Positions 3,068 through 12,883 of a stretch of 64,000 bases of DNA are shown here, in pieces (positions within the stretch are counted from its first letter, which is position 1; the number at the start of each line of letters is the position of its first letter). Where the stretch lies: IMG/VR virus record IMGVR_UViG_3300032317_000216, positions 32,001 through 96,000 of that record. One strand, written 5' to 3'. The stretch is from a virus. Lineage: Duplodnaviria; Caudoviricetes. The position numbers were made by a program, and so were the translations under genes. The notes under the pieces were generated by a model, which saw nothing but the letters and a program-made list of their open reading frames with translations, was not told where the DNA came from and did not search any database.

Positions 3068-3404
3068 GCAACTTAACAATAACTTCTATATTAGAACTAA
3101 TCTTAGTTAAGATGTCAACCAGTTGATTAGGTTGCACACTTACCTGTGATTGAGAGGGAGCAGCATACTGCATGGGTGCTTGAGGTTGTGATGCTGTATG
3201 TTGTGGTTGTAGTACTGGTGGTTGTTGATTTTGACCAGGCAGTGACCCCACTATCTCTTTAATGTTGAGAGTATTGCCCCTTAGAGTATTTGTTTTACCA
3301 ATAATGTGGCTATCAAGCTCTTTAACAAACCCTTGAGTTTGTCCCAAGAACTGAAGAGCAATCATTTTTGCTTCTTCAGGAGTAGGTTCTCTAAAGGCAT
3401 CCAT
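3057..3404 (-). CDS. hypothetical protein, Gln/Pro-rich middle
   Basis: 115-aa ORF coupled to gp32 by a TAATG overlap. Confidence 0.6.
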   Translation of the reverse strand: MDAFREPTPEEAKMIALQFLGQTQGFVKELDSHIIGKTNTLRGNTLNIKEIVGSLPGQNQQPPVLQPQHTASQPQAPMQYAAPSQSQVSVQPNQLVDILTKISSNIEVIVKLLDK

Positions 3405-4264
3405 TATAGATCCTCGAGAAGTTTCTCTAGACTCTCATCGCTAGGTGATGGTACTGATTGCTTTGGGGAAGGCGCTGCAGCAACCTTTGCTACAACAGGC
3501 GCTTCAACTTTGCTTTTCTCTTTGACTGCAACTTCAGGCTCTGCATCAACATCTGATTTGCAGTAGTAGTGCTTGTCAAGCATGTCTTTGAGCTCATCAT
3601 AAGATTTAACAGTTATATATGATTCAAGATCATAAACACTCTTGTAAGTCTTTTCAAAGGAATCTTCATCAAGACCTTCAACTTCTTTTGGAGTTGTGAA
3701 TTTGGATGATACATATGTTGGGTAATCACCTTGTTTCTCTACTTTGATTTTTAAGTTTACACCTTTTGGTGACAGATCAAAAATACGAGGTCCAAGCTCT
3801 TCAGCATCTTCACCTTGAATAGCATCCATAATGATCTTGTTCAACTGACGACCAAAGCGAAGAATCTTCACCTTATTATTATTCTCTTCATTAACAGGAT
3901 CATTAATCACATAGCAATTAACCAGCCAACGCTCTGTCCTAACAATGCTCTTAATCTTCTCTTTATCCTGTTCAGAACCATTCCTAAATACACGGTAGCG
4001 CTCTTCTGCAATAGGGTCACGCTCATTCCATGTAGTAGGGCTAACAAGAGTGATCAATTGACCTGTTGAAAGACTGTTCCAACCATGAGAGTAATAATGA
4101 AGGAAGGTTTTGGTAGGATCCTTCATATTGGGAAGAAGACGCACTGTATATGTGTTGCCTACTTCAGTGCGCAAAAAGTCTTTTTGCTTGTTTGAAGTAC
4201 TGGCTGTTTCTTTAGTTAGAGCACTTTTAATGCTTTCGAACATTGAGGAAGTTAATGAATTCAT
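3404..4264 (-). CDS. single-stranded DNA-binding protein (T4 gp32-like)
   Basis: VRLLP, YSHGW, NCYVINDP..NNNKVKILRFG, IFDLS..GVNLKIK, YPTYVSSKF and an acidic tail. Confidence 0.9.
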   Translation of the reverse strand: MNSLTSSMFESIKSALTKETASTSNKQKDFLRTEVGNTYTVRLLPNMKDPTKTFLHYYSHGWNSLSTGQLITLVSPTTWNERDPIAEERYRVFRNGSEQDKEKIKSIVRTERWLVNCYVINDPVNEENNNKVKILRFGRQLNKIIMDAIQGEDAEELGPRIFDLSPKGVNLKIKVEKQGDYPTYVSSKFTTPKEVEGLDEDSFEKTYKSVYDLESYITVKSYDELKDMLDKHYYCKSDVDAEPEVAVKEKSKVEAPVVAKVAAAPSPKQSVPSPSDESLEKLLEDL

Positions 4265-4272
4265 ATAGTCTT

Positions 4273-4300
4273 ATGATATATGAGTCTAGAGCATATTCAA
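4273..4300 (-). promoter_or_regulatory. promoter TTGAAT-N16-TATCAT, 8 nt before the gp32 ATG
   Basis: Read directly from the sequence. Confidence 0.65.
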
Positions 4301-4948
4301 CTCATTTTTTAATCTTTTTTTAAATCTGTCTAAACCTGTGACTACTAACACCTTACATTTTGAAGAGTTTAAGAATTTAATTTTCTTTGTATTTATTTTG
4401 TCGAGAAACTTGTCTTCAAACATGAATGACAGAATGTTAAGATCAGATTTAGTGAAGAAAGTATTTAAATCTTCAAAGCCTAAGAGTGAGTATATGTTGA
4501 TATCTCTGTTTTTTAAATGAAGTAAAAATGAATATATATCATTAGTTTTATGAGAGAGATACAATGACATGTCAATTTTATTGTCTTTGCAAAAGTTGTA
4601 GATAAACACAAGAGACTTCTTTGTAAAGGTTAGCTGATCATCTGAGTCAGGATCAAGATTATTAACATTATTACAAAAAACAGTATATGCTTTAATGGCT
4701 TTAAGACTAATAAAGTGGCTAAGCTCAAAAAATTTTTCATCTTTGTGTATACTGTAAGATGCTAAAAAGAAAGCTAATGGCTCTATCTCTTTGTGTTTGT
4801 TGAAAAAATTACTAAGTTTTTTAAGATGAGCTATACTCTTGTCATCCAAATCGTCAAAGTTTTTCCTCAAATTAAACGGTTTATTATTTTGCTGCCGGGA
4901 AGTTCTTAAATGCAGGTTGTAAATGTATTTCTCAAAATCAGATATCAT
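4286..4948 (-). CDS. hypothetical protein, possibly helicase loader (gp59-like)
   Basis: 220-aa basic helical protein immediately upstream of gp32, matching gp59 in size and position; sequence similarity is weak. Confidence 0.4.
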   Translation of the reverse strand: MISDFEKYIYNLHLRTSRQQNNKPFNLRKNFDDLDDKSIAHLKKLSNFFNKHKEIEPLAFFLASYSIHKDEKFFELSHFISLKAIKAYTVFCNNVNNLDPDSDDQLTFTKKSLVFIYNFCKDNKIDMSLYLSHKTNDIYSFLLHLKNRDINIYSLLGFEDLNTFFTKSDLNILSFMFEDKFLDKINTKKIKFLNSSKCKVLVVTGLDRFKKRLKNELNML

Positions 4949-5151
4949 TTATAGTTACGCCATTTTAACCTGTTAAAATCCTTTTTCAATCTTTTTAACC
5001 GGCTAGGCTTGTGATGATATCTTCTGAATCGTGATTCTTCAATAATAAGGGATTTCTGTACTTCTCTACTAAACTTAATATACATTTTATCAAAATACGG
5101 TTTTTCAATGCTCATATTTTTGTTGAGTTTGACTTCCGAATGTATAATCAT
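4945..5151 (-). CDS. rpsU: ribosomal protein bS21-like
   Basis: 68 aa, highly basic; FDKMYIKFSREVQKSLIIEESRFRRYHHKPSRLKRLKK fits the bS21 pattern (F/I)d.al.rFk+.v...gi..E.r.r..y.KPs..r+.k. Confidence 0.7.
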   Translation of the reverse strand: MIIHSEVKLNKNMSIEKPYFDKMYIKFSREVQKSLIIEESRFRRYHHKPSRLKRLKKDFNRLKWRNYK

Positions 5152-5429
5152 AGTTTATTAAAGTTCTTTGAGTTTAAAAATTTCATTATATATTTACTTT
5201 TATAGAGTGTAGAATCAAAGAATAAAAAATATTTTAATGCATCATACTTGTTTTTAAAGTCACAATAATCTACTAGAAGATCACGGAATCTTTGTTCCTT
5301 CAGTACCAAAAGAAATATATTGGCAAGATTTATCTTTTTGGGCTCAAGCAAGGCACAGAATGAGCAAAAAGAAAGAAATAAATGGTTTACTTCTATTTCT
5401 GATATTTTTTCTGTAGGTGTATAGCTCAT
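5148..5429 (-). CDS. hypothetical protein
   Basis: 93-aa ORF with ATGA overlaps on both sides. Confidence 0.6.
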   Translation of the reverse strand: MSYTPTEKISEIEVNHLFLSFCSFCALLEPKKINLANIFLLVLKEQRFRDLLVDYCDFKNKYDALKYFLFFDSTLYKSKYIMKFLNSKNFNKL

Positions 5430-6325
5430 TTGATAGGATGTAGAAGTTTTGTAAGCTCAAGAAACATTTTTGTTATTTTACCACCTGCAACACAACCATC
5501 ACCACCGCCTTCAAAGACTTTCTTTGCAAACTTGCCAAGGTTAATATTGCAGTTTTTATTTTTTCTTATGCTGACACTAGAACTATTGAGATTGACACTT
5601 ATGGCAATATCACATTCGTAAGCACGTATAATCATATCACAAATCTCAGAAGGAAAAATATTGTTAAATGCGCTGCAAATAATTGCATCAACGCCACCAA
5701 TTCTAATGCTGCCTTTGAATACTTTTAAAGAGGAGAATGTGTTGTTTATTTTATTAATAATGTTGTTAATTGTGTTTTCTTGCAATGGGTTGAATCCTGT
5801 GAACCCATTTGCGAATGTATTATAAAATTTTAAAAGTTTATCCCCTTCAAAAGTATTAAACAAATAGTGAAGTTTCTTTGATTCAGGTAACTTTAGTTCA
5901 TAGCTATCATAATCATTAACTAGAGCTATCAAGGTTTTTTCTTCTTTTGTAAAAGGGGTTTTTAGTTTTTCCTTTAACTTTTTATACAACAGTAATGTGC
6001 AGCTGGGTGAATCAATAGACTCTTGGCGCAGATTTTTAATTGGCAGTTCTGAATAACTTTGAGAATTACGGTGATTGATATACACTACATTAGGCAAGTC
6101 GATAATATCTAGATTATTTTCAATAACGGCTAAATCACAGATGTATATTTTTTTATATTTTTCTTTATTCTCAAGATTAATAAAATCAGTTCTAAACTTT
6201 TTTTCTGTAGTTTGTGTATGTCTAAATTCACTTCCTATTACTTTTCTCAAAGTATAGTAGCAACCAGCACCATCGAGATCACAATCAGTGAATAAATAGA
6301 GGTCATCTCTTGTTTCCTGGTTCAC
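5426..6325 (-). CDS. DHH/DHHA1-family phosphoesterase-like protein with degenerate motifs
   Basis: TDCDLDG motif I, ICDL motif II, INHR in place of DHH, SVSIR and GGGDGCVAGG in place of GGGHxxAAG. Confidence 0.75.
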   Translation of the reverse strand: MNQETRDDLYLFTDCDLDGAGCYYTLRKVIGSEFRHTQTTEKKFRTDFINLENKEKYKKIYICDLAVIENNLDIIDLPNVVYINHRNSQSYSELPIKNLRQESIDSPSCTLLLYKKLKEKLKTPFTKEEKTLIALVNDYDSYELKLPESKKLHYLFNTFEGDKLLKFYNTFANGFTGFNPLQENTINNIINKINNTFSSLKVFKGSIRIGGVDAIICSAFNNIFPSEICDMIIRAYECDIAISVNLNSSSVSIRKNKNCNINLGKFAKKVFEGGGDGCVAGGKITKMFLELTKLLHPIK

Positions 6326-6330
6326 TTACT

Positions 6331-6358
6331 ATTTTACTAAAAAAAGTTGCTAAATCAA
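6331..6358 (-). promoter_or_regulatory. promoter TTGATT-N16-TAAAAT, 5 nt before the GTG of the DHH-bS21 operon
   Basis: Read directly from the sequence. Confidence 0.65.
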
Positions 6359-7680
6359 CTAAGCGTTAAACTGTTAAGTGTAGCAATGGATGATGCTGAA
6401 GCTTCCGTATCGTTATTTATCTCATCTTCTGTAAGAGTTAAAGTTGAATAGTCAATTTTCATGTTACACACACCAAAGTTTTCACCAAATCTATTTTTCA
6501 TAAGTCCCATCTTTATAACCCCCAGTTCTTTGTCTGTATCTTCTTGCCAAATACTAAGAATAACATCAGCAGTGTGACCAAGTCCCATGGATTCAGAGAG
6601 TGTATTTAATCCTGGATTGCTTATGTCGTAACCAGCGCGATTTAACTGGGTTGCAGATATAATGGGGAAATCAAACACATAGCTAAGAGCTCGCAGTTGC
6701 TCAGTCACATGTTTGACCCTTTCATAAGTATTATTGCCTAATGTTGAATGTATTAAGTTAATATAATCGACAACCAGTGCATCAATCTTAATGCCTTGAT
6801 TGGTGGTCTTCTTGATAAAGGCGTTGAGGTGGTTGCAAGTTATAGTCGATGGTGGAAACTCTTTAACTAACAGCTTGGCTTTAGAGTTTTCATTCTTATA
6901 TTCCTGCAGTTGTTGAAAGAGTGTAGATGACTCAGATTTTAAATGATGAAAAGGTATTTTAGTAATACTGGAACAAAGCCTCTTGGCATATATTAATTCA
7001 GGCATTTCCAGTGATATTAATAAAACGGTTTTACCTTGAGCAGCCATATTAACTGCAACGTTACCGAGAAATATACTTTTACCTATATTTGTTTCACCAG
7101 CAAAAACATAAAGCGCTCTGCCATTCTCAAGAAAACCACCACCTGTCTTTTTATCAAGCCATTTCCACTTTGAGGATATATATTTTTCTTCCGTATTTAA
7201 ATTGTCAACAATTGCTGCAGCATTTTCAAAGATATCTAAACCAATATTAGTAGCAAGAGATATATTACATGCTGTTTGAAACTTCTCTAGAACAGCTGCC
7301 GTACTTACTTTGCCTTTGGTAATATCATCAACTGTTTCAAGCATTGTGGTGTACACAGCTTTCTGTTGTAAGAAAGCTTCAGTATTAGCAGTGAGTTCAT
7401 CGACGTTATATGTTTTATCAAAATCCTTGATGTTACTAACTGCAATTTTAAAACTGTTCTTCAATTCATCAGTAGTAAGGTGTGCCTTGATCTCAGTAAC
7501 GTTTGGTCTTGTGCCACGGGAAGAATAAAAGTCTTTTATGACGGAGAATATATTTTTAATATCTTTACTTTTAAAATATTCAGGCTTTATGTAGTCAATA
7601 ATAGAAGCCAGATATGTATCATCTGTAAGGGACTTGTACAGAATAATATTCTCAAAGAAATCTAAATCTAACTTCTCCAT
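6355..7680 (-). CDS. replicative DnaB-like helicase (T4 gp41)
   Basis: Walker A AGETNIGKS, SLEM, VKEFPP, VVDYIN, SATQLNR, SESMG, MKNRFG. Start moved to ATG 7680 (MEKLDL) to avoid overlap with the upstream gene. Confidence 0.92.
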   Translation of the reverse strand: MEKLDLDFFENIILYKSLTDDTYLASIIDYIKPEYFKSKDIKNIFSVIKDFYSSRGTRPNVTEIKAHLTTDELKNSFKIAVSNIKDFDKTYNVDELTANTEAFLQQKAVYTTMLETVDDITKGKVSTAAVLEKFQTACNISLATNIGLDIFENAAAIVDNLNTEEKYISSKWKWLDKKTGGGFLENGRALYVFAGETNIGKSIFLGNVAVNMAAQGKTVLLISLEMPELIYAKRLCSSITKIPFHHLKSESSTLFQQLQEYKNENSKAKLLVKEFPPSTITCNHLNAFIKKTTNQGIKIDALVVDYINLIHSTLGNNTYERVKHVTEQLRALSYVFDFPIISATQLNRAGYDISNPGLNTLSESMGLGHTADVILSIWQEDTDKELGVIKMGLMKNRFGENFGVCNMKIDYSTLTLTEDEINNDTEASASSIATLNSLTLS

Positions 7681-11067: not shown

Positions 11068-11799
11068 TTTTTTACAGTTATATTTCTTCCAGGGTATTGT
11101 AATTTTATAATTGACAGGGTCTATATAACCTGCATCGAGAAACCCTTTGATTCTGAGTGAACACGCTGTGCATTCACCACAAGCTTCTTCAGCGCCTTCA
11201 TAGCAAGTCCATGTGTTATTAAAATTTACTCCAAGCTTAACACCAAGCTTAATAATTTCTGCTTTTGATTTGTCAATTAATGGTGCTAATACTTTAATTC
11301 TATTTCTACGATTCAAGTCACTGACTTTGTTAATTTGATCTAAAAACTCAATACTACCATCCCAAAAGCCTGCAACACTATCAGCTTGAGCAGCTCCGTG
11401 AAAAACTACTGAAGCTCCAGTACTCTCTGCTATGCCTAAAGAAATGCTCAAAAGCATTAAATTCCTGAATGGTACATAATTAACTGTCTGTGGATCGCCC
11501 ATAACATCCTTGGCTTTTGCAACTGCAATATTATTGTTAGTTAACGCAGATGTTTGACAAATATCCTTAAAGAAAGGTATTTTTATGAATCTGTAATCAA
11601 CTTGTTGCTTGAGACTCTCAACTTGGAATGAAGCGCAATTTAGTTCTTTTTCACGGTGCTTTTGACCATAATCAAAGCTTACAGCCACAATATCATCATA
11701 CTTGTCAGCTGCATAATGTAGCAGGACAGTGCTGTCCATGCCACCTGAGATAGGAACGACTGCTTTACTCGACTGGTGTTTCTTCAGTTGGCGCTTCAT
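11059..11799 (-). CDS. queC: 7-cyano-7-deazaguanine (preQ0) synthase
   Basis: SGGMDST, FDYGQKH, YVPFRN, TWTCY..G...CGECTACSLR zinc site. Confidence 0.93.
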   Translation of the reverse strand: MKRQLKKHQSSKAVVPISGGMDSTVLLHYAADKYDDIVAVSFDYGQKHREKELNCASFQVESLKQQVDYRFIKIPFFKDICQTSALTNNNIAVAKAKDVMGDPQTVNYVPFRNLMLLSISLGIAESTGASVVFHGAAQADSVAGFWDGSIEFLDQINKVSDLNRRNRIKVLAPLIDKSKAEIIKLGVKLGVNFNNTWTCYEGAEEACGECTACSLRIKGFLDAGYIDPVNYKITIPWKKYNCKKLN

Positions 11800-12883
11800 T
11801 AGTATTGTATTTGTATTCTTGTTCTAAGCGCTTGTCGAGTTCTGGAATAATAAACTCCTCGTAGAAAGCGGGGTCCTTAGCAAATGTCTTTGCGTAACCT
11901 AGTTTATCACCTTTTTTATACTTACCACTGGTAATACCAACTGTATATGTGGCACCGTTTTGTTCGATGATACCTCTTGCAACTGCCATGCCTAGCAAAC
12001 CACTATATTTGTTAAGTCCAGTTTTAAAAGAAAGATACATCTCTGTCTCTAAAAAAGGTGGAAGAAAGCGATTCTTAACAGTCAGGGCTCTCAAAGTTGT
12101 ACCTGAGTATTTGTTAGCTTCTGCAAGCTTCTTGTCATCGGCATCCATGGAATCACCTTCACCCTCTTTCTCATGTCGTTTAGCCAGCTGCACAAGAATA
12201 CTGGCCATGTATACAGGTCCCGAGCCGCCTGCTTGGTTTTTCACTAAGCTAGGGAACATTGAAGCTGGGTCTTCATATGTATGATTAGTAAACAAAATAG
12301 TAACGCCTGCTTTGGCTGCTTTAAAGGTTAAAGTACGGAACATACTTTTCAGAGACTTTGCACGGAGACCCATATCTGATGCAGATTTATCCTTTGCAAC
12401 GTCATCCAATTCTTTCTGAGAAGCAAGGTTGCCTAAGCTATCAATACTAATAATGAACTTGCCTCTAGCGTTGTTCTCAATTACGCTATCAAGAAAAGCA
12501 CTAATCTGATTACGGCACTGATCAATAGTGTCTACTGGTACATATTTTGTGCCTTCTGGATCTAGCCCAACTCCCTTTGTACTATTCTCATCGATCGCGA
12601 TTTCAGTATCAAATATTACGGGTGTGAGGCCTTTCTTCTGAGCAGTAGCAAGGATCTTATTAACAATAAATGTCTTGCCAGTCTGACTAGGACCAGAGAA
12701 ACCAGTTATTCTGCCCTTAGGTACACCACCACTGCGACAACTGCCACCGAGAATAGCGTTAAGAGCATAGCATCCTGTATCAAACCACTCATCAACTTTA
12801 CTAAGTGCATTTTCATTTAACATTGATGCTTCGCTGTTTAGCTTATCAAGCGAGGCAAATATTTTACTAAGGTCTTTGCTCAT
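11765..12883 (-). CDS. uvsX: RecA-like recombinase
   Basis: DTGCYALN, GPSQTGKT, FDTE, IDSLGNL, DMGLRAK, TNHTY, GGSG, KNRF. Confidence 0.92.
   Translation of the reverse strand: MSKDLSKIFASLDKLNSEASMLNENALSKVDEWFDTGCYALNAILGGSCRSGGVPKGRITGFSGPSQTGKTFIVNKILATAQKKGLTPVIFDTEIAIDENSTKGVGLDPEGTKYVPVDTIDQCRNQISAFLDSVIENNARGKFIISIDSLGNLASQKELDDVAKDKSASDMGLRAKSLKSMFRTLTFKAAKAGVTILFTNHTYEDPASMFPSLVKNQAGGSGPVYMASILVQLAKRHEKEGEGDSMDADDKKLAEANKYSGTTLRALTVKNRFLPPFLETEMYLSFKTGLNKYSGLLGMAVARGIIEQNGATYTVGITSGKYKKGDKLGYAKTFAKDPAFYEEFIIPELDKRLEQEYKYNTNEAPTEETPVE

Follow-up and report, generated by a model that had tools for sequence, protein, structure and literature searches.

The ribosomal protein most commonly encoded by viruses is bS21, which is mostly aquatic in its viral occurrence and is under purifying selection; pN/pS values of about 0.1 have been reported for viral ribosomal-protein genes (PMC6375957). 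The bS21 of pelagimyophage HTVC008M enters E. coli 70S ribosomes, and with a GFP template in vitro E. coli ribosomes carrying it gave ~5% of wild-type translation (PMC6375957). S21 has been reported as core to the pelagimyophages (PMC7029224). For Bacteroidetes, Chen et al. (2022) put forward a substitution of phage bS21 into the host ribosomes that would favour phage transcripts late in infection; their paper makes no mention of leaderless mRNAs (PMC9723584). In E. coli, ribosomes without uS2 and bS21 perform better on the leaderless lambda cI mRNA, since their anti-SD tail is not kept in the exit path (PMC10491246), and Mycobacterium smegmatis, which is rich in leaderless mRNAs, is without bS21 (PMC5876184). 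The bS21 of Bacteroidia, which sequesters the anti-SD, has a signature consisting of a Tyr twelve residues after the Ser of the KPS motif (S+12) and a weakly basic C-terminal domain (PMC7797042, Jha 2021).

Here we describe a bS21-like gene in a phage genome from freshwater. The stretch of DNA analysed, which we call the window, has 64,000 nucleotides and corresponds to bases 32001-96000 of a 128,640-bp IMG/VR viral contig with 35% GC, estimated by CheckV to be 61% complete. The contig carries markers of a T4-like myophage, namely gp32 (PF08804), a DnaB-type helicase, a gp45-like gene and the gp23 major capsid protein. The best identities of gp32, DnaB and gp23 to any cultured phage are 29-35%, with cyanomyophages and pelagimyophages tied, and relatives come from lake metagenomes, the phage itself being uncultured. 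A search for gp32 relatives across 185,579 species genomes returned none, and none of the genes for psbA, peptide deformylase and S1 is found on the contig. Read by eye, the promoters look to be of the sigma70 type and not of the Bacteroidetes type, with the form TTGA-N16/17-TATAAT, and no Bacteroidetes-type promoter was noticed in the upstream regions of the contig. The sole tRNA of the contig is a tRNA-Met(CAT), located outside the window (G000:C1:125602-125674, minus strand); since it has a paired 1-72 end and lacks the three G-C pairs of the anticodon stem, it is of the elongator or Ile2 type rather than an initiator.

The bS21 gene and its product

A preliminary description made from the sequence of the window had reported a 68-aa bS21-like ORF, and this ORF is present (Table 1) and is, on the strength of the sequence comparisons below, a genuine, strongly diverged bS21 homologue. 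The check with the Ribosomal_S21 HMM proposed there gave a match to PF01165 (E 1.1e-5), which at 25.5 bits nevertheless falls short of the 27-bit gathering cut-off; PHROG 21469 (ribosomal protein S21) was matched with an E-value of 0.007. All PDB matches are bS21, both with phmmer and the single sequence (23 of 23) and with a profile (32 of 32), the best one being 28nt_u, whose chain name is bS21B. Comparison of the near family with canonical bS21 by hhalign gave 98.8% probability and an E-value of 1.2e-16. When 1.84 billion representative proteins were scanned in full, only 19 clusters had E <= 0.001, and these form a gradient from the subfamily of the ORF to canonical proteins of the KSGIxxExRxRxYxKPS type. 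An alignment (A2) was built from 18 of these clusters and the query ORF, and each of its 19 members matches PF01165 individually. Searches of cultured phages by tblastn, with the ORF and with canonical bS21 as queries, gave nothing useful.

Canonical bS21 has the core motifs (R/K)F, KSG(I/V)xxE and RxR..(Y/F)xKPS/T. The residues of this core that are kept in the 68-aa ORF are F27, E38/E39, R41/R43, Y45 and K48-P49-S50. The two unusual motifs pointed out in the preliminary description are both found, SLIIEE (residues 34-39) and YHHKPS (residues 45-50), and the alteration of conserved positions is genuine: Leu35, invariant in the near family, stands where canonical bS21 has its conserved Gly, and His takes the place of the acidic residue that precedes KPS. 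In more distant members of the clade the Gly position is occupied by F, D, L or G. There is an N-terminal extension, estimated at ~8 residues relative to the E. coli sequence. The tail of the subfamily is short and very basic, with 9 K/R and 1 D among the 18 residues after S50, and ends in a conserved KW(R/K)xY motif; counting from KPS, the residue at S50+12 is Leu62, and aromatic residues are located at +9, +14 and +17.

The AF2 model of the protein (pLDDT 86) has helices at residues 17-34, 36-44 and 49-63 and a loop at 45-48, which is the small, basic, helix / KPS loop / helix layout expected of bS21. Foldseek found no relevant match to this model in the PDB, and a VIA-wide comparison gave only Z-scores of 4.3 or less, with helical proteins of many kinds tied. 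Fold searches are uninformative for a protein of this size (68 aa) with an extended conformation on the rRNA.

The score below the Pfam threshold, together with the absence of the gene from some lineages of the clade, could indicate that the gene is what is left of a captured rpsU, in decay or without function. However, every carrier has an intact frame and a gene of conserved length, an alignment of 12 sequences shows 29 invariant columns, and dN/dS is 0.09-0.13 where dS is computable (dS being saturated between subclades). This signal of selection effectively refutes decay, which we regard as scarcely credible.

Operon context and distribution among relatives

Table 1. Features of the bS21 region, in window coordinates and in the order of transcription
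Feature	Position	Strand	Remarks
DnaB-type replicative helicase	6355-7680	minus	PF03796 E 3e-29, phrog_19 E 2e-77; upstream of operon
sigma70-like promoter TTGATT-N16-TAAAAT	6331-6358	minus	5 nt before GTG of DHH-like gene; kept in near relatives
DHH-phosphoesterase-like gene	5426-6325	minus	299 aa, GTG start; phrog_4771 E 1.1e-12; first in operon
hyp93, conserved hypothetical	5148-5429	minus	93 aa; ATGA overlap with bS21
conserved TAAATATATAAT in hyp93 3' end	5185-5196	minus	33 nt before bS21 ATG
divergent phage bS21 gene	4945-5151	minus	68 aa, ATG start; PF01165, PDB and hhalign matches
gp59-like helicase-loader candidate	4286-4948	minus	220 aa; ATGA overlap with bS21; fold match
gp32 ssDNA-binding protein	3404-4264	minus	PF08804 E 2e-19

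The bS21 gene is the third of four genes coupled by overlaps in the replication block, as had been described, and the ATGA overlaps between them are real (5426-5429, 5148-5151 and 4945-4948). The early/middle-type promoter assigned to this operon corresponds to the sigma70-like element found before the DHH-like gene. The names given to two of the neighbours stand in part. The DHH-like gene matches PHROG 4771, but Pfam DHHA1 is reached with an E-value of just 0.11; in relatives this gene is likewise called as 299 aa, and the 441-aa form of DnaB is also the one called there. The 93-aa product of hyp93 matches no Pfam or PHROG family.

The designation of the 220-aa gene as gp59-like draws support from its predicted fold and its position, but not from its sequence, since no Pfam, PDB or pairwise sequence match to gp59 was obtained. 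Its AF2 model (pLDDT 88.5) has T4 gp59 (1c1k) as top Foldseek match (E 0.1, probability 0.93), and in VIA the comparison with 1c1k gave a Z-score of 7.2 over 178 residues with an rmsd of 14 Å, the next row having a Z-score of 4.7; a search of the ESM Atlas with this protein gave no usable match. In T4 the gp59 gene is located directly upstream of gp32, the same position as that of the 220-aa gene. The name is a reasonable but not proven one for the modelled protein. A separate abutting promoter, TTGAAT-N16-TATCAT, serves gp32 at a distance of 8 nt from the ATG.

Among relatives the site of bS21 is constant, between hyp93 and the gp59-like gene with an ATGA overlap at either junction, and upstream of gp32, also where bS21 identity falls to 38-40%, and loci collected by their gp32 share the order DnaB-DHH-hyp93-(bS21)-gp59-like-gp32 throughout. 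hyp93 directly precedes the site in relatives with and without bS21 alike. The site is empty, with hyp93 abutting the gp59-like gene, in two groups of sister phages (L016/17/19/26/30 and L020/22/23/25/28), and searches with the A2 profile and with PF01165 found no bS21 elsewhere in the records of the L020 group (92 kb and 127 kb), the records of the bS21-less sisters being only 44-61% complete. In the DnaB tree, the L016/L019 group falls inside a clade of bS21 carriers comprising L072, L073 and the group of the window. Branching inside this clade is poorly resolved, so that loss of bS21 is possible, as is a single gain. Judged by the empty sites, bS21 is most likely an accessory module, optional in the clade.

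The location among conserved replication genes, the strong divergence from cellular bS21 and the family-specific C-terminal KW(R/K)xY would also suit a small basic nucleic-acid-binding protein that acts outside the ribosome, in the replication/recombination module, for instance together with the gp59-like protein, gp32 or the DHH nuclease. Associations of bS21 outside the ribosome have been reported, for example with the OLE RNP (PMC12054373). We nevertheless regard such a role as very unlikely: the rRNA-binding core is kept (the F27 position, the basic helices and the KPS motif), and the neighbouring genes are unchanged in phages without bS21, which indicates that no partner depends on it.

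In L016, L073, L025 and L022, a late-type TAAATA box is found 5-6 nt before the GTG or ATG of the DHH operon instead of the sigma70-like element, and in L072, L020 and L028 a TAAATA box precedes the operon at other spacings. Among relatives, the operon may be driven by promoters of different classes, and bS21 accordingly be timed differently. Within the operon, TAAATATATAAT is kept, or nearly so, by relatives at bS21 identities as low as 38%; it may act as a promoter inside hyp93 from which a leadered bS21 mRNA is made, or may reflect mere coding constraint on hyp93.

Among public RNA data, a share of 5-6% of the words of this sequence was found in just three lake metatranscriptomes, and there in assembled contigs only. 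In all three, contigs of relatives with 90-99% identity cover the bS21 ORF, while other parts of the 20 kb are bare; the ends of these contigs carry no information on start sites, and there are no relevant joints. This is weak evidence that the bS21 ORF is transcribed in lakes. In the first 20 kb, the gp32 and uvsX (11765-12883) genes of relatives are the best covered, and contig depths are 15-85.

Start signals and their relation to bS21 carriage

The phage had been described as leaderless and free of SD sequences, which holds at the level of the sequence. When genes were called with the same simple program in every genome compared, SD-like motifs were found for 10% of the genes here, which is background, versus 62% in T4, 51-53% in HTVC008M and Mosig and 23% in cyanophage S-RIM8. 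For about 35% of the contig genes, the ATG is preceded at 4-9 nt by a -10 or late box. TAAATA and ATG are separated by exactly 5 nt in 16 contig genes and by 6-7 nt in 9 more; TATAAT-type boxes precede the ATG at a distance of 6-8 nt, and TTGA is found 16-17 nt upstream of 17 of these 26. Among the 156 called genes, an abutting box is present before 55 and an SD-like tetramer before only 7, and 48 are coupled, meaning that they overlap the preceding gene or follow it with a gap of 3 nt or less, so that abutting boxes and coupling together account for at least two thirds of the genes. The late boxes of T4 are found at the -10 position, roughly one turn of the helix upstream of the start site (PMC2988020). 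Taken together with the spacings observed here, this geometry places the predicted start of transcription at, or next to, the start codon. The phage appears to use two SD-independent modes of initiation, one from an abutting promoter box and the other at start codons that overlap the preceding stop or follow it within 3 nt, and the case that it is SD-free and largely leaderless is strong as far as sequence can tell.

The same arrangement of TAAATA, exactly 5 nt and ATG was also observed for 11 genes in HTVC008M and 6 in Mosig, despite the 51-53% SD of these phages. Prediction of late promoters in pelagimyophages had failed (PMC7029224); from these spacings, a subset of pelagimyophage late genes may be leaderless.

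The preliminary description had joined the variant bS21 and the promoter architecture into one translation-takeover system, in which the phage protein would occupy the bS21 site, alter the handling of the anti-SD and so disfavour SD-led host mRNAs, while sparing or favouring the mRNAs of the phage, whether leaderless or coupled by overlap. The SD-free, largely leaderless layout of the phage and the position of bS21 behind a sigma70-type, early/middle-looking promoter are as such a system would have them. Moreover, the anti-SD is supported by bS21, whose state has an effect on leaderless as against SD-led translation (PMC10491246, PMC7797042), and the low yield of E. coli ribosomes with HTVC008M bS21 on the GFP template (PMC6375957) is in keeping with interference of this kind.

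The distribution of bS21, however, is not that of a component of such a system. The correlation between bS21 presence and leaderless fraction across related phages, put forward as a check, was looked for and no association emerged. The sister phages with an empty bS21 site have the same architecture, with 32-34% abutting boxes and 10% SD in whole records, and 0-9% SD in loci of 10-20 kb. Conversely, other carriers are rich in SD: in 64 further viral loci that carry bS21 and span 10 kb or more, which were drawn with the pattern of alignment A4 and are therefore biased to canonical, Gly-containing bS21, the median SD is 55% and the median of boxes 5%, and none of the 64 has SD at or below 15% or boxes at or above 25%. 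The bS21 carriers HTVC008M, Mosig and L074 are likewise SD-rich. With leaderless sisters lacking bS21 and SD-rich phages carrying it, bS21 carriage and leaderless design are unassociated in either direction, and bS21 is most likely not a built-in part of the SD-free, leaderless expression design.

Two further points bear on the takeover system. The signature of the anti-SD-sequestering bS21 of Bacteroidia is absent here by residue counting, as the residue at S+12 is not aromatic and the tail is strongly basic. In addition, leaderless translation has been linked to the absence of bS21, not to its addition (PMC10491246, PMC5876184), and these data imply that a takeover would require dominant-negative action. 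Taken as originally proposed, with bS21 and the promoters as one system, we consider the takeover unlikely. A narrower version, which we hold to be distinctly unlikely, is that an early, dominant-negative bS21 displaces that of the host and disables SD-dependent host initiation, sparing phage mRNAs that start at the AUG or are reinitiated at ATGA, and that this function is optional in the clade. If true, it would amount to a phage-encoded switch of ribosome specificity that some members of the clade do without.

Proposed role and comparison with known systems

In our view, the locus probably encodes a long-resident, strongly diverged accessory phage bS21 that enters host 30S subunits, a reading that we favour with some reserve. 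Four features run counter to a ribosomal role, namely the Pfam score below threshold, the replaced Gly, the site among replication genes and the fold searches, in which the 68-aa model retrieved no bS21. According to the ribosomal reading, bS21 would be transcribed together with the DHH-like gene, hyp93 and the gp59-like gene from the sigma70-type promoter and translated through overlap coupling. By homology to cellular and phage bS21, we infer that the protein would bind the host 30S platform beside the 3' tail of 16S rRNA, where from early or middle infection it could replace or supplement the loosely bound, late-assembling bS21 of the host. The outcome would be that translation initiation is tuned or sustained. 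To our knowledge, the function of a phage bS21 has never been shown in an infection. The clade described here provides a natural comparison, as it consists of close T4-like phages that have the same SD-free design and differ in the precise presence or absence of bS21, and with a host in hand, a pair of phages with and without the gene could be used to test the effect of viral bS21 on the choice of mRNA by the ribosome.

The alternative bS21 paralogues of Francisella have also been proposed to alter mRNA choice (PMC9578407, PMC13374519), but they are encoded by the host and their incorporation into ribosomes has been demonstrated, whereas for the phage protein such incorporation is a prediction. 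The Bacteroidetes phages of Chen et al. (PMC9723584) resemble the present case in that bS21 is carried by a freshwater phage, and the hypothesis of substitution into the host ribosome is applicable here as well. In those phages, however, bS21 is located among structural genes, is expressed late and keeps an aromatic residue matching Tyr54 of F. johnsoniae, whereas here it is found between DnaB and gp32, with a sigma70-type promoter, and has Leu at S+12.

With the pelagimyophages HTVC008M and Mosig (PMC6375957, PMC7029224) the phage shares a bS21 that is carried by a lytic, aquatic T4-like myophage, is under purifying selection and is encoded outside a translation cluster. Their bS21 is canonical, with scores of 65.7 and 58.6 bits on PF01165 against 24-25 bits here, and that of HTVC008M is 54% identical to the bS21 of its host, in contrast to the protein described here, which is without a close cellular relative. 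The pelagimyophages also differ in their SD content (51-53% versus 10%) and in peptide deformylase, which has been reported as core in that group and is absent from this contig, and gp32 and gp23 are just 32-35% identical to those of any cultured phage. Phage-encoded bS21 is itself already known, and the comparative data argue against a role for it in the leaderless design; what this locus adds to the known phenomenon is a diverged bS21 subfamily and a replication-operon context with a sigma70-type promoter.
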